A stretch of DNA of 64,000 nucleotides, from NCBI GenBank assembly GCA_051362555.1, contig CM120641.1, forward strand, positions 15,624,001 to 15,688,000, in the 5' to 3' direction. Every line of letters starts with the position of its first letter. Within the stretch, counting starts at the first letter, position 1. This document shows positions 45,801-51,800 of this stretch, one piece after another. The position numbers were made by a program, and so were the translations under genes. Under the pieces are notes generated by a model that saw nothing but the letters and a program-made list of their open reading frames with translations, made no database searches and was not told where the DNA came from. The DNA comes from Lingula anatina. Lineage: Eukaryota > Animalia > Brachiopoda.

Positions 45801-48800
45801 AACGGTTTTAAAGATTTTAGAATTGGAAGTAAATAGTAAAATTCAAATTAATATTTTCACGTTTTATAATTTAAATTCTACAACAGCTTGGACTTGATAT
45901 TGAAGAATTGGAAGAGATAGAAGAGGATGCTGGTCTGGGGAATGGTGGTCTGGGAAGACTAGCTGCCTGCTTCCTGGACTCCATGGCAACCCTAGGACTG
46001 GCAGCCTATGGATATGGTATCAGATATGACTATGGTATCTTCACACAGAAACTAAAAGATGGCTATCAGGTGAGTATAGGAAGTAACGAATTAGGCCTGT
46101 ACAGGCGCAGGTAATAGTGTAATTCAGGGGGTTGGAAATAAGTGCCCTTTTGGTCAGGAGAAGGTTCCTATCTTAATCAAGATTTGATATCTAGGGTTTT
46201 TTTGCCAGTTCTGAAGCATATGCAGGTTTCACAGAAAAAAGAGTCCTCTTTTTCAGAACAACCTACCTTTATCGATAGATTTTGCCATTAAAAGCATGAT
46301 TTTAAAATATTAGAACCAAAAAATTTTTAGTAAAACATTTGTTATACACTACTACCCCTAAATCTGTGCAGTGCATTCCATATTTTTTCACCTCCAGCAT
46401 GAGGAACCAGATGATTGGCTGCGCTATGGTAATCCTTGGGAGAAGGCACGTCCTGAGTACATGTTGCCTGTCAACTTCTATGGCCGTGTTGAGTGTGATG
46501 CAGATGGCAAGCACAAGTGGGTCAACACCAGTGTAAGTATGCTGCCAGGGTAGCTAGATAAGCAAGGAATTTTTGAATTTTCCAAATGTTTCCAGTAGTT
46601 GAAAGTAGTTTAAGCATTCTTTTTGACAGCTTTTCACAGCAGACTTTCTAAATTACAGTTTTTGCTGTTTTGTGTTTTTTTAATGAATCTTTTTTTTTTT
46701 TTTTTTTTTGAAAGAAATACGGCAGTATGGCATTTTCTGAATGGAGATGTTTCAAGACAAATTAGTTTCAGTAAAGAAAGATGTTGCCTTTATGGAATAT
46801 TGAATAAACTTTTTTTCCTTATATCCATATCCTAGTCTCATGCTATCTAAAGGACTGTTTCATCAATTAATGAAGACACAAAAAACTGGAGTTATGTTTT
46901 ATATCTCTTTGTCAGTTAATTATTGATATTGTGAACAATGTAAAGTGACCAAAACATAAAATATGACTATGATTGGTCATGGGTAACATCTGAAGTCTAA
47001 TTCCATTTCCTTTTAGATTGTATTCGCTATGCCTTATGACAATCCTATCCCAGGTTACGCCAACAATACAGTGAACACACTAAGACTGTGGTCTGCAAAG
47101 GCTCCAAACAGTTTTGACCTTAATTTCTGTGAGTATATCACAGACATTTTACCTGGCAAATTCTCACTTCTACATAACTTACAACTTATGTTTTACAACT
47201 TACTTTCTCAAATCAAAATAAAAGTAAGCTGTTAAGTGCAGCCAATATTCTTTGTTGTTGGATATGAGCAATATGACTGGGTTCCCATGCCTAGATCGAT
47301 CCATCTGGATCGACCTAATTCCTTGGGGGTTCACAATTAATTGCTATCAACTTAAGAGGCCTAAATGTCTGTCATGCCTACTGAATCAGCTAGGGGGGTA
47401 ATTAAATTTCTTCCACGCACAGCTTTGCGGATAGCAGATAGCAATTTAGCGAGACTCCCCATGGAGATTGATTGATCCAAATATCTGTGGGAATGGTTCC
47501 TATGTCTTGATTGTCTTTCAGGTACCAATGGATAAAATTGTTTTCTGATTGTCTTCCAGTTAACAATGGAGAATACATCCAGGCTGTATGTGACAGAAAC
47601 TTGGCTGAGAACATCTCCAGAGTGCTTTATCCCAATGACAATGTGAGTTTTGTGGGGTAAATTTGTATTGAAACAAAAACAGCCATTTCTGTAGGGTGAA
47701 GATTTTGTTTCAGTTGTAAATTGTGACAAACCAATATTGAACACCTTGTCAATGGTGATTGTGTCATTTTCAAATTAATACTTGTTAATTATACAGGAGA
47801 CAATAAGTTATTAAAATTTTTGTATCAGTTTCATTACAAGTTCTTCAAGATTGACCAATTGGTGTATAATTTTTTAGGTGCCCCAAGATGGAATAGATTG
47901 AATGCAATCAAAATTCTTTTTATCATGTTCACTCAATTACTTAATTTAATATTTAGGTTAGTCTTAATGATTTTATGATATACAAAATCCATGTCATATA
48001 TCTGTATATTTTAAATCTTTTTTGCTGCCTTAATTATTCAAAATTGAGATATATATGCACCAATTTTTTAAAGATAATTTATAAAAAATACATGACTTTT
48101 TGTCAGTTTAGTAATCTGTAAATCATTTAATTATATGAAATTTATATTGCAATCTGTATATACATTCTTGCTTTGAAATTGTCTTCTTCTATAGATTAAT
48201 ATTTTCTTATCCATTTCTGTATCATATATAAACTGTCAGACAGATTGCATACAATACTCTGATATACATATATACATTACATTGTGATATATAGTCTGTA
48301 ATAGTATGTTGCATGTATCCTGCAATTTTCAAAGTAATCTATTAATATTTATTTCTGTTGTTTAATTACACATTATTTTCAAATTGTAAGATTCTTGAAT
48401 TCTATCACGCATGGCTGGTGCTGTGTGGACCAGTTTTTCTATTTATTCTGTTTTATTATATTCTCTGTATATTTGAATGTATACAATAATAGGTATTTGA
48501 GGGCAAGGAACTGCGACTAAAACAGGAATACTTTTTGGTGGCAGCCACACTGCAGGATATCATACGCAGATTCAAGTCATCCAAATTTGGATGTCGCGAC
48601 CCTATCCGAACTTCCTTTGACAGCTTCCATGAAAAGGTCTGTGCCATGTGTGCCGCTCCTGTCTCTGTTTGCTGGTGTGCCCTGCAGCTGCTATGCATTT
48701 CTCCACTCTATAACCTGTATGTGTGCTACAGAGCTTTCATTGATACAATTGTGTGATACTTTTTTGCCTCTGATTTTGATTTTGTTTTTTCGTCCTGACT

Positions 48801-51800
48801 AGTTCTTCTCAGGGAAAGAACTGCGACTGAAACAGGAGTATTTCTTAGTTGCTGCCACTCTGCATGATATTTTACGCAGATTCAAGCAGTCTAAGAGTGA
48901 GATCTTCACGGGTAGCTTTGATGCACTCCCAGAGAAGGTTTGGGCTTTTCCCTCGCTTTAATGTGACTCACTGTTTTTCTTTCTTTCTGTTGACAAGTTT
49001 GGGATTCAAAAACTAATCATTACGTCACTATTTTAGTGATATTTTAACGTTTGAGCTGGGGGGGGGGGGGGGGGGATTAATCAGAGTAAATTTTATATTC
49101 AAGCACACTCTCACTGCTACAAACATCATCCTGCATTCATAGCTATAACACTGCTAACAGTAATACCTGATGTATAAACCACAAAGAAAACTTCTCCATA
49201 ACCTTCATACCTCAACCACTTTGAAACCGTAATGCCAGCAGAGATATAAAGCAACTTATTTGAACCACAGTCACACTGCTCAAGGAACACCATCATGAGT
49301 GCTTTTTAACTTGCATTGCTTAACGAAGCTTGTGCAGCAAATTCAGTCTTATGCACATTAATTTAAGCTAGTCCTAGATTTAACATTTATTTGTCAATAT
49401 TTGAGACTCTGAACATGATTTATATTTCAGTTTGATCACAAAGTATGTGACACTATTATATTCTATAAATACATGTTTACAGTAAATACTATTTAATTTT
49501 GACTTTTTAAATTTACTTGCATTTTAAATACACATGTGAAGAACAGATTGGAAAAATGATACGCCTTTACTAATTGATAAGGGACGGTTGCCAAATGTTT
49601 TATATCTCACATTAATTGTTTTAATTATTATTTTTTCATGTTTGTTCCAAGTCTTAAACATTTCATTGTTCACCATGTAGCACTTAATAGATAATTTTTT
49701 ATCACTATTATTTATTGTTGAAGATATACTAAATTGTTTGTTTTACAAAACTATCTCTTTGATTGTGACATTTCAAACATAATAATAATAGCTTAATACA
49801 AATATTACTACCCCAGAATGTTAAAAAACTTGATATTTCAATAACAAATATTGAAAGTGAATAGAATTTTATTGTATGTTTAAACTTGATACCATTTTAA
49901 ATGATTGGACCAGTATTAGATAATACCATGTTTAAGATTTGCCATTATGTCAGATGATGAGGTTTGAATTATAGGTTGGTTATTTTATTATGTTTCTCCC
50001 ATTCATTTCTGTTTGGTAATTAGGTAGCCATACAGCTGAATGACACCCATCCATCTCTGGCAGTCCCAGAACTCATGAGGATCCTGGTTGACTTGGAGGG
50101 GCTGCCTTGGGAGAAGGTAGGGGGACAATTAGTGGAGTTTTACTAAAAATGAATCATTTTTCCCATTTATCTCTCTTTTAAAACTTTTTCTCCTTTGAAT
50201 TTTTGATCGTCATTATTTGGCTATAAAAATTACAATTCCTACAGAATATGAAAAACATCAACTTAAAGTTAGCTTATGGGGAAACATATTGTTTTAAGCA
50301 ATCCAGAGGATGTATACATGCCAAGTTCATTGAAGTATGAGAAATCTAATGAAGACATGTACCACACACATATATTTGCTGGTTATTATAGATTGATTGT
50401 CATGGTGATATTATAATGTTATATATATATATATATATACACATCAGCACTGTCTGCATAGATACATAGGATGGAGGTCTAAGTAGAAAATTGCAAATGG
50501 AACTGAAATGAATGTATTTTGCTTTTACACACTAGGCTTGGGAAATCACACAGAAGACCTGTGCCTATACCAACCATACTGTATTACCAGAGGCTCTAGA
50601 GCGCTGGCCTGTTGACATGCTGAAGAATGTGCTACCCAGACATTTGCAGATTATGTATGACATCAATGCAAACTTTATGAAGGTAAGTTTATCATGTGTT
50701 TGACAAGAGGTGAGCAATGTCAAGTAGGGGTATCCGTCATGAACTTGTAGAAATGAGTGACAGTACACACAAGCTACCTGTTGCTCTGCATTGATTGATA
50801 ATGGTGAACATGTTGACCAGTGCTGATTATTCTAATAAAAATATGTGAAAATGTTGCCATGTAGACAACTTTGTATGTATCCCATGCCCCTCCTTCATGA
50901 ATAGTCTAAAATCCTAATACAAAAGATAAAATATTCCATGCCCTCTTTCAAGTAGAGTCTAAAATCTAAACATAACAGCTGAAATACTCACAGGATAATT
51001 AATCTTGTACAGGAAGTACAGAAGCGGTACCCAGGAGACATGCACCGCTTGGGCAGGATGTCCATTGTGGAAGAGTTTCCTATAAAGTGTATCAACATGG
51101 CCTACCTCTGCCTGGTGGCCTGCCATGCTGTCAATGGGGTGGCACAGATCCACTCTGACATTATTAAGAGAGAGACGTAAGTACTGAGTATGCTTGTTAC
51201 TGAGACATTAAGAGGGAATCATAAATATGCTGTAGGGCTTAAAAGTTGAAGTATGAGTGCTTTACTAATTTTCTTTTTTATATATATATATATATATATA
51301 TTGGGGTAAGTAAACAAATTAAGCCACTGAATTGATGTAATTTTGTTGATTTATGGGTGAAGTGATATTGTTTCATCTAATTAGTTTGAAACTTGGCAAG
51401 TAAATGTAACTTGCATTTGCTCTTATTTTTCAGCTTCAAAGATTTTGCTGAAATGTATCCTCACAAGTTTCAGAACAAAACTAATGGCATCACCCCAAGG
51501 CGCTGGCTTTTACTGTGCAACCCTAACCTGGCAGATGTGATTGCTGATGTAGGTTGATTGCTGGGTATTTTGGCTTGAAGATATGTGAAACATTGAATAG
51601 TGTAGTGATGTTAAATGTGGTAAATTGGTAAGAGTTGTCATATGATTGCTTTAACAACACATTTTGATAGAAAAACTATGTGTACACTTTTAGTTAAAAG
51701 GCGTTTTATAGTAACTGAGAGTAAATAAGACTGAGATAGCATAGACATGTAGAAAGGATGAGTGATGAAAACTGGGTGAAAAGAGTAACAAAGTTTGAGG

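Follow-up and report, generated by a model that had tools for sequence, protein, structure and literature searches.

Tandem mutually exclusive copies of exon 7 carry different adenine loops in the glycogen phosphorylase gene of Lingula anatina

Two copies of exon 7 in one gene

The glycogen phosphorylase gene of the brachiopod Lingula anatina carries, one behind the other, two versions of the exon encoding the loop that adjoins the AMP-sensing site, and this raises the question of whether both are used and whether they make different enzymes. We analyzed a window of 64,000 nucleotides (contig CM120641.1, positions 15,624,001 to 15,688,000) and found that the gene splices in either copy, in ratios that depend on the sample. 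We consider it likely, at a probability of about 0.65, that it thereby makes two isozymes that share a catalytic core and respond differently to AMP and to purine-site inhibitors. The features concerned are the following, in window coordinates.

39820..55764, + strand: glycogen phosphorylase gene, 19 coding exons per transcript, ATG to TAA
47560..47642, + strand: constitutive exon 6, ending in ...LYPNDN; its donor joins 7a or 7b (47642->48493, 47642->48803)
48493..48636, + strand: exon 7a, 144 nt, residues 285-332 (rabbit numbering); from joint reads and sequence
48637..48802, + strand: segment between 7a and 7b, 166 nt; no joint across it listed
48803..48937, + strand: exon 7b, 135 nt; joint reads in three of the four runs with joint counts
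50024..50116, + strand: constitutive exon 8; its acceptor takes 7a or 7b (48636->50024, 48937->50024)

The exon chain, many joints of which were confirmed by RNA reads, gave stop-free frames for both products, 858 aa with exon 7a and 855 aa with exon 7b. These are identical to the L. anatina RefSeq proteins XP_013388571.1 (isoform X1) and XP_013388572.1 (isoform X2), whose difference is confined to 17 alignment positions in one exon. The original prediction had left room for the pair being undescribed; both forms are in fact already annotated in RefSeq, under names without regulatory comment, and our literature search found no paper on Lingula phosphorylase isoforms X1/X2. The product has the full-length PF00343 fold (1442 bits against the human muscle enzyme, residues 1-838). 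A residue check found the PLP lysine 680, the Ser14 phosphosite and the AMP-site residues, and the body common to both forms retains Ser14, Asp42, Tyr75, Asp227, Arg242, Tyr613, and Lys680. In AlphaFold models of the two forms, which were therefore set aside, pLDDT averaged 61-62 and fell below 50 over residues 226-289 and in part of the loop. No Rfam family matched in 39000-57500.

The predicted geometry of the pair (coordinates, lengths of 144 and 135 nt, spacing of 166 nt, AG/GT ends, phase 0-0) proved correct throughout. The two exons match over 75 nt at 83%; the repeat covers the exon alone and not the flanking introns, and no second copy of another coding exon was found in the window, exon 7 being the sole duplicated one of 19. 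Over codons 288-304 we reproduced the predicted 10 synonymous and 0 non-synonymous differences in 17 codons (pS 0.71, pN 0, Fisher p 8e-8), and over all 36 alignable codons pS was 0.68 and pN 0.15, the unalignable loop lying outside this test. Judged by these substitution patterns, both exons are under purifying selection in their alignable part. Together with the spliced reads of 7b, the pN of 0 in the core agrees with the earlier view that 7b is unlikely to be a decayed duplicate.

Use of the two exons in RNA

Eight raw-read runs from the same species were used as coded samples with hidden tissue labels, and the four possible joints were counted in runs X1, X2, X4, and X7. A joint was listed when it had 3 reads from 2 starts, a threshold below which a small share of double inclusion would fall; the exon 8 joints appear in the read listing as 48634/48935->50022 with 'cut +2'. 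The reads for 6->7a / 6->7b / 7a->8 / 7b->8 were 5/10/10/7 in run X1, 21/5/15/9 in run X2, 25/6/29/12 in run X7, and 105/0/153/0 in run X4, where the depth on 7b was zero. All four joints were thus present in three of the four runs and the 7a joints alone in X4; 7a joints were also among those listed for all four further runs, which were mapped to the whole gene; 40 rows of that table, any 7b joints among them, lie beyond the listing. This junction-read check, proposed with the original prediction, joined 7a and 7b each to exons 6 and 8, so both exons are live. Neither the 7a->7b joint (48636->48803) nor the 6->8 joint (47642->50024) was listed in any of the four runs at 3 or more reads from 2 starts, and the frequent inclusion of both exons, which would contradict the predicted exclusivity, was therefore not seen. 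Homologous to each other, placed between the same flanking exons and, at this threshold, found neither included together nor skipped together, 7a and 7b are tandem duplicated mutually exclusive exons.

The share of 7b ranged from 0% to 53% across these four runs, and the upstream joints alone gave p 5e-13 for the difference between runs. Rough estimates from bin depth were ~66% in X3, ~1% in X5, and ~33% in X6; X9 was omitted because poly-G reads swamp its bin. Runs X4, X5, and X6 belong to one study, and the three runs holding both forms by joint reads come from two studies. Flanking-joint reads per million records were 8.8 in X4 and 14.3 in X5, compared to 1.5-3.2 in the other six runs.

The exclusion of one exon is probably set by splicing factors. 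No other intron segment of the gene is as rich in GC as the 166-nt one (0.44), and its donor, GTCTGT, is non-consensus. Its opening 100 nt contain seven YGCY motifs, compared to 0-3 after the other 18 donors; an enrichment was rejected, with 8 seen against a mean of 7.6 in dinucleotide shuffles (p 0.52). No convincing long-range RNA pairing was found, the best inverted repeats being AT-rich, 24 nt at 75%, and without a control. In OGDH, whose exons 4a/4b are mutually exclusive, PMC7969005 describes exclusion enforced by branch points near the donor of the intervening intron. The Lingula segment has an AG-free tract of ~68 nt and branch-like motifs ~105-140 nt from the 7a donor, 24-60 nt upstream of the 7b acceptor; these putative branch points, together with AG dinucleotides at 48686, 48730, and 48732, may speak against the OGDH layout.

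The adenine loop and the predicted regulation of the two forms

In glycogen phosphorylase, the loop 315-324 coordinates AMP binding, and Phe285 and Tyr613 form the inhibitor site (PMC9081730). In the brain enzyme, a disulfide in the same loop blocks AMP activation, a redox switch that needs Cys318 and Cys326 (PMC12267944), so the loop can control the AMP response. That the duplicated segment covers Phe285, Arg309/Arg310, and the adenine loop was borne out by PMC9081730 and by alignment to the solved rabbit muscle structures 1a8i/1axr, where 7b spans residues 285-332 and leaves a gap of three residues in the loop.

Exon 7a is near-identical to the vertebrate muscle segment and has Val285, Arg309/Arg310, a conserved-type adenine loop with Gly317, Cys318, and Arg323, and His330. 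Exon 7b has Phe285, Ser287, His305, Arg309/Arg310, and Pro330, and its loop is rewritten, three residues shorter, and without Phe316-Gly317-Cys318 and Arg323. Val285 in 7a and, in 7b, Phe285, Ser287, and a loop three residues shorter without Cys are as the original prediction had read them. Both exons carry Arg309/Arg310, so what differs between the forms is limited to the loop and position 285, and the predicted swap of the allosteric segment holds for these two and not for the phosphate-contacting arginines. Among distinct 21-residue phosphorylase segments, Gly317 is kept in 105 of 106 and Arg323 in 106 of 106; 7b lacks both. Val285 is not special to 7a, as other phosphorylases have it in 12 of their 117 distinct segments, and shorter loops occur in Macrostomum (16 residues) and Adelges (19), compared to the usual 21, with one form found in each. 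Changes like the short loop and Val285 are thus tolerated.

The vertebrate isozymes PYGM, PYGB, and PYGL (PMC9081730; 1a8i, 5iko, 1fa9, 3ceh) are the same enzyme as in Lingula, but they come from separate genes and differ along the whole chain, whereas the Lingula forms come from one gene and differ by one exon. PYGB has Cys318 and Cys326; 7a has Cys318, as predicted, with Phe326 in place of the second cysteine, which excludes a brain-type redox switch. The suggested parallel with the vertebrate paralogues is weakened for 7b and the poorly AMP-responsive liver isozyme, which are not alike in sequence: human PYGL keeps Lys315-Phe316-Gly317 and the loop length, both lost in 7b, and the two share only the loss of Arg323.

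From these residues we infer that the 7a and 7b forms are regulated differently, and one gene likely gives two such enzymes because the exons rewrite the loop adjoining the AMP-sensing site. The 7a form has the muscle-type loop, which closes over bound AMP, so AMP would activate its dephosphorylated state; with Val285 in place of Phe285, stacking with Tyr613 at the inhibitor site would be weaker. The 7b form, which keeps Phe285 but has a shortened and rewritten loop, would respond weakly to AMP and rely on Ser14 phosphorylation. In studies of muscle/liver chimeras, determinants of the AMP response are reportedly spread over the N-terminal half, beyond the loop alone. We would guess that 7a alone serves muscle-like tissue, as the runs with most phosphorylase may represent, and that the 7b form serves storage-type tissues. 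The highest phosphorylase levels were observed in X4 and X5, with 7b at 0% and, roughly, ~1%.

An unlikely though serious alternative is that the splicing is real and regulated, and that the loop alters a protein contact, oligomer state, stability, or location rather than small-molecule allostery. It fits the identity of the phosphate-binding Arg309/Arg310 in both exons and the exons 9 and 17 swapped in other invertebrates, which lack every AMP-site residue that PMC9081730 lists. Oysters insert 14 residues directly after exon 7, and one further protein has a similar insert, so the exon 7 surface takes varied additions. Against this, 7b lacks the two most invariant residues of a loop described as an AMP-coordinating element, and position 285 differs too.

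We think it less probable still that the duplicate 7b arose recently and in a restricted lineage, with its helix part held by folding and its loop drifting, and that both enzymes work much alike. No relative with the 7b loop was found among the 120 matches listed (best 71%) or 150 representatives (best 76%), all with other loops, and none of 63 metagenome loci had a second exon-7 copy. The loop length also varies among other animals. However, the sets searched held no close brachiopod relative, so these absences, which bear on the predicted check for loss of 7b in relatives, say little; the 27 metagenome loci spanning both flanking exons gave 15 distinct peptides and hence few independent animals. 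Synonymous divergence is near saturation (dS ~2), so the duplication is not recent, and 7b use is strongly sample-dependent. An allele or assembly artefact, with a second haplotype collapsed in tandem and genotype behind the sample differences, would suit the absence of depth on 7b in X4 but is highly improbable, as alleles elsewhere in the gene are scattered single bases rather than saturated silent sites, both forms occur in three runs from two studies, and only the exon is repeated.

Exon swaps in other phosphorylases and other enzymes

One-exon swaps or tandem copies were found at four other phosphorylase exons in other invertebrates: at exon 17 in oysters, at exon 4 in the brine shrimp Artemia and in myriapods, at exon 5 in the nemertean Lineus, the priapulid Priapulus, and the annelid Dimorphilus, and at exon 9 in the annelid Owenia. 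First-exon differences (Adelges, Acanthopagrus) were left out of this count. An apparent exon-9 swap in Octopus bimaculoides was dropped for a broken gene model, multi-exon repeats in P0123, P0200, P0408, P0409, P0410, and P0415 because they look fused or mis-assembled, and an odd Pomacea loop (P0093) was not counted; its protein is only 75% like its counterparts in other gastropods, and no sibling form turned up. As a tentative reading, which we put somewhat short of even odds, phosphorylase may be an invertebrate hotspot of repeated exon duplication, with swappable copies of at least five exons (4, 5, 7, 9, 17, Lingula numbering) in different phyla, where splicing repeatedly built regulatory isozymes and the Lingula loop swap turns AMP sensing on or off. 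These exons include all three internal exons holding AMP-site residues. Vertebrates, on this reading, built such isozymes by gene duplication instead.

The class of duplicated exons is already known from PKM and OGDH, and the Lingula phosphorylase pair is a real one. The swapped exons of PKM (9/10) and PFKP (PMC9741552) are, like the Lingula pair, duplicated in tandem and mutually exclusive; they too belong to enzymes of carbohydrate metabolism, and a residue at an allosteric site differs between the forms. Enzyme and effector are others than in Lingula, and the PKM pair is at least vertebrate-wide and has known kinetics. The Lingula pair, seen in one species, has an entire loop rewritten and three residues deleted. 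The OGDH exons 4a/4b make a metabolic enzyme whose tissue-specific forms either respond to an effector or do not (PMC7969005). The duplicated exon 10 of oyster alternative oxidase (PMC5589949) gives a spiralian metabolic enzyme one conserved and one derived exon, used, as in Lingula, in different ratios; it differs in being a terminal exon of another enzyme, with air exposure as the condition.

AMP activation and purine-site inhibition are the properties that separate the muscle, brain, and liver isozymes, and the isoform X1/X2 pair is a clean natural test of the share that the adenine loop and Phe285 have in them. If the wider pattern is true, transcript measures of invertebrate 'phosphorylase', as used for oyster glycogen content and hypoxia tolerance, would pool differently regulated forms, and phosphorylase would add a case from metabolism to the convergent duplication of tandem exons, a pattern reported until now chiefly in ion channels and transporters (PMC9741552).

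A duplicated exon in the glycogen phosphorylase gene

A single glycogen phosphorylase gene was found in the window, and its stop-free spliced products were 858 aa long with exon 7a and 855 aa long with exon 7b.

39820–55764, + strand: glycogen phosphorylase coding region, 19 exons
48493–48636, + strand: exon 7a, bounded by AG..GT, length a multiple of three
48803–48937, + strand: exon 7b, bounded by AG..GT, length a multiple of three

The original prediction of tandem exons with intact splice sites, 166 nt apart, was confirmed on the window sequence, and our recount reproduced its 10 silent and 0 replacement differences over the 17 shared codons 288–304 (pS 0.71, dS ~2.1, Fisher p 8e-8). 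Over the 36 alignable codons, pS was 0.68 and pN 0.15. As no replacement separates the copies in the 288–304 core, neither exon is drifting freely. Second copies of other phosphorylase exons were searched for within the window and none was found. The gene also has a GC-AG intron (53081–53581; donor CAG/GCAAGT).

The last exon matched (100%) a Lingula anatina record named "glycogen phosphorylase isoform X1", whose cluster includes isoforms X1 (XP_013388571.1, 858 aa) and X2 (XP_013388572.1, 855 aa) among the two of three members read. These are identical to the two spliced products, indicating that RefSeq already carries both forms; the pair is annotated, yet apparently not discussed in the literature. 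Mutually exclusive exons that arose by tandem duplication form a known class, frequently convergent and tissue-specific, in which PKM and PFKP swaps alter allosteric residues (PMC9741552); PYG is mentioned neither in the text of that article nor in one supplement file (15,271 characters, possibly incomplete). No published phosphorylase exon swap was found in the accessible literature outside subscription journals, including the available parts of PMC5594505 and PMC5829090. The Lingula pair is a phosphorylase instance of this class, and OGDH 4a/4b (PMC7969005) and oyster alternative oxidase (PMC5589949) are close to it in logic.

Exclusive and sample-dependent splicing

Exons 7a and 7b are a real, expressed, mutually exclusive pair with sample-dependent use. 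Four RNA runs with the same species label (coded X1, X2, X4 and X7, unrelated to the isoform names) were mapped to 46900–50800, with joints listed from 3 reads with 2 starts.

Reads per joint 6→7a, 6→7b, 7a→8 and 7b→8, with the 7b share, which differs between runs (p 5e-13 on upstream joints)
X1: 5, 10, 10, 7; share 0.53
X2: 21, 5, 15, 9; share 0.28
X7: 25, 6, 29, 12; share 0.25
X4: 105, 0, 153, 0; share 0

All four predicted joints were thus seen in X1, X2 and X7, and those of 7a alone in X4, every one being GT..AG. As expected for mutually exclusive use, no 7a→7b joint or skip of both exons was listed in these runs, where a small share below 3 reads or 2 starts would not appear. When runs X3, X5, X6 and X9 were mapped to the whole gene, the exon 7 joints in the listed part of a truncated table were those of 7a; rough 7b shares from bin depth were 0.66 (X3), 0.01 (X5) and 0.33 (X6), X9 being unusable. 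X4, X5 and X6 come from a single study, so differences between studies do not account for the spread. Phosphorylase reads were most abundant in the two runs almost without 7b, at 8.8 and 14.3 per million records versus 1.5–3.2.

By elimination, we infer that the 7a/7b choice is probably regulated by splicing factors: no RNA pairing element stood out, the layout of the region appears not to fit OGDH-type steric exclusion, and decay of double-exon transcripts would not account for the exclusion, since 7a and 7b together keep the frame.

Two intronic dispersed repeats (45083–45428 and 47275–47500) attracted many reads of other transcripts, on both strands and with loose ends, and had no Rfam match; intronic poly-G tracts (49058–49076 and near 53808) drew artefact reads and false joints. 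Runs X7 and X9 of one study (P3) carried many fixed single-base differences from the window across 39500–57000, other studies not so, which suggests a cryptic lineage or a separate population; 7b is used in X7 despite these differences.

Likely regulatory consequences of the swap

Exon 7b aligns with rabbit muscle residues 285–332 with a three-residue gap, and Arg309/Arg310 are present in both copies. In phosphorylase, the loop of residues 315–324 coordinates AMP, and Phe285 together with Tyr613 makes up the inhibitor site (PMC9081730). For comparison, 192 of 196 proteins of at least 600 aa from the first searches could be parsed and gave 117 distinct segments; this set is skewed towards the queries and includes 7a and 7b themselves. 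The 21-residue stretch 312–332 occurred in 106 of these, with Gly317 in 105, Arg323 in 106, Pro330 in 92 and Cys318 in 34; position 285 was Phe in 83 of the 117 and Val in 12. The alignment bore out the predicted differences at residue 285 and in loop length. Exon 7a has a consensus loop with Val285 and His330, while 7b keeps Phe285 and Pro330, has a loop three residues shorter, and lost Phe316-Gly317-Cys318 and Arg323. Each copy therefore retained one regulatory feature and changed the other. The shared body carries Ser14, Asp42, Tyr75, Asp227, Arg242, Tyr613 and Lys680. The quality of predicted structures was too low to inform this comparison.

A functional difference between the forms is likely. 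Our best reading, to which we give about a 65% probability, is that 7a would yield an enzyme activated by AMP but weakened at the purine site, and 7b one that responds poorly to AMP. Against this reading, shorter loops also occur in Macrostomum and Adelges proteins, and chimera studies reportedly place AMP determinants more widely. Exon 7a, for which a muscle/brain-like loop was predicted, has Phe326 and so lacks one of the two cysteines, Cys318 and Cys326, on which the redox switch of the brain enzyme depends (PMC12267944). The sequence of 7b is not of liver type: the human liver enzyme likewise lacks Arg323, but unlike 7b it keeps Lys315-Phe316-Gly317 and the full loop length.

No 7b-like loop was found in sets without a full-length close relative, the best match reaching 71% among 120 listed of 244 matches and the best-scoring one 76% in the 150 of 294 representatives that were listed. 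A duplicate of exon 7 was absent from all 63 metagenome loci, of which 27 cover the two flanking exons and yield 15 distinct peptides. In a divergent phosphorylase of the gastropod Pomacea (P0093, P0019, P0292), 75% identical to its closest matches, the adenine loop is rewritten at unchanged length, which may reflect a paralog or an alternative exon.

Exon swaps elsewhere in the phosphorylase gene

Thirty clusters were opened, giving 326 proteins of at least 600 aa, and 348 pairs with at least 94% identity were compared at the level of protein records. A swap pair had all differences within one Lingula-numbered exon.

Swaps and tandem copies (P handles denote protein records)
Exon 4 swap: Artemia franciscana (P0074/P0238), 17/17 substitutions within the exon
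Exon 5 swap: Lineus longissimus, nemertean (P0129/P0219), 9/9
Exon 5 swap: Priapulus caudatus, priapulid (P0147/P0222), 13/13
Exon 7 swap: Lingula, 14/14
Exon 9 swap: Owenia fusiformis, annelid (P0051/P0231), 15/15
Exon 17 swap: six oyster species, four genera, 17–24 substitutions each
Tandem exon 4 in one gene model: Strigamia (P0423), Chamberlinius (P0086)
Tandem exon 5 in one gene model: Dimorphilus, annelid (P0082)
Tandem exon 17 in one gene model: K1Q948

One-exon pairs were absent from most clusters, e.g., Mytilus, Aplysia, Penaeus and Pecten, and an apparent Octopus swap was dropped as a broken gene model. The oyster exon 17 swap covers Lingula residues 728–772, and like copies group across genera (71–87% versus 47–62%), indicating that it is old. 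Oysters also have an optional 14-residue insert directly after exon 7, the adenine-loop exon; the two options are independent, giving four isoforms per species (oyster records P0241–P0256, P0035–P0040 and P0453). In Artemia, Chamberlinius and Strigamia, the second exon 4 version has another residue in place of the lysine that corresponds to the indole-site Lys191; there are hints that the versions in all three derive from one old arthropod duplication. Asp227 and Arg242 are identical within the Lineus and Priapulus exon 5 pairs.

Exons 4, 5 and 7, which are all three internal exons with AMP-site residues (list in PMC9081730), are among the five swapped exons, an overlap with a chance of 0.015 for 5 of 17 exons in a test chosen after the data were seen. 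The recurrence of exon swaps across phyla is a more novel lead than the Lingula pair itself.
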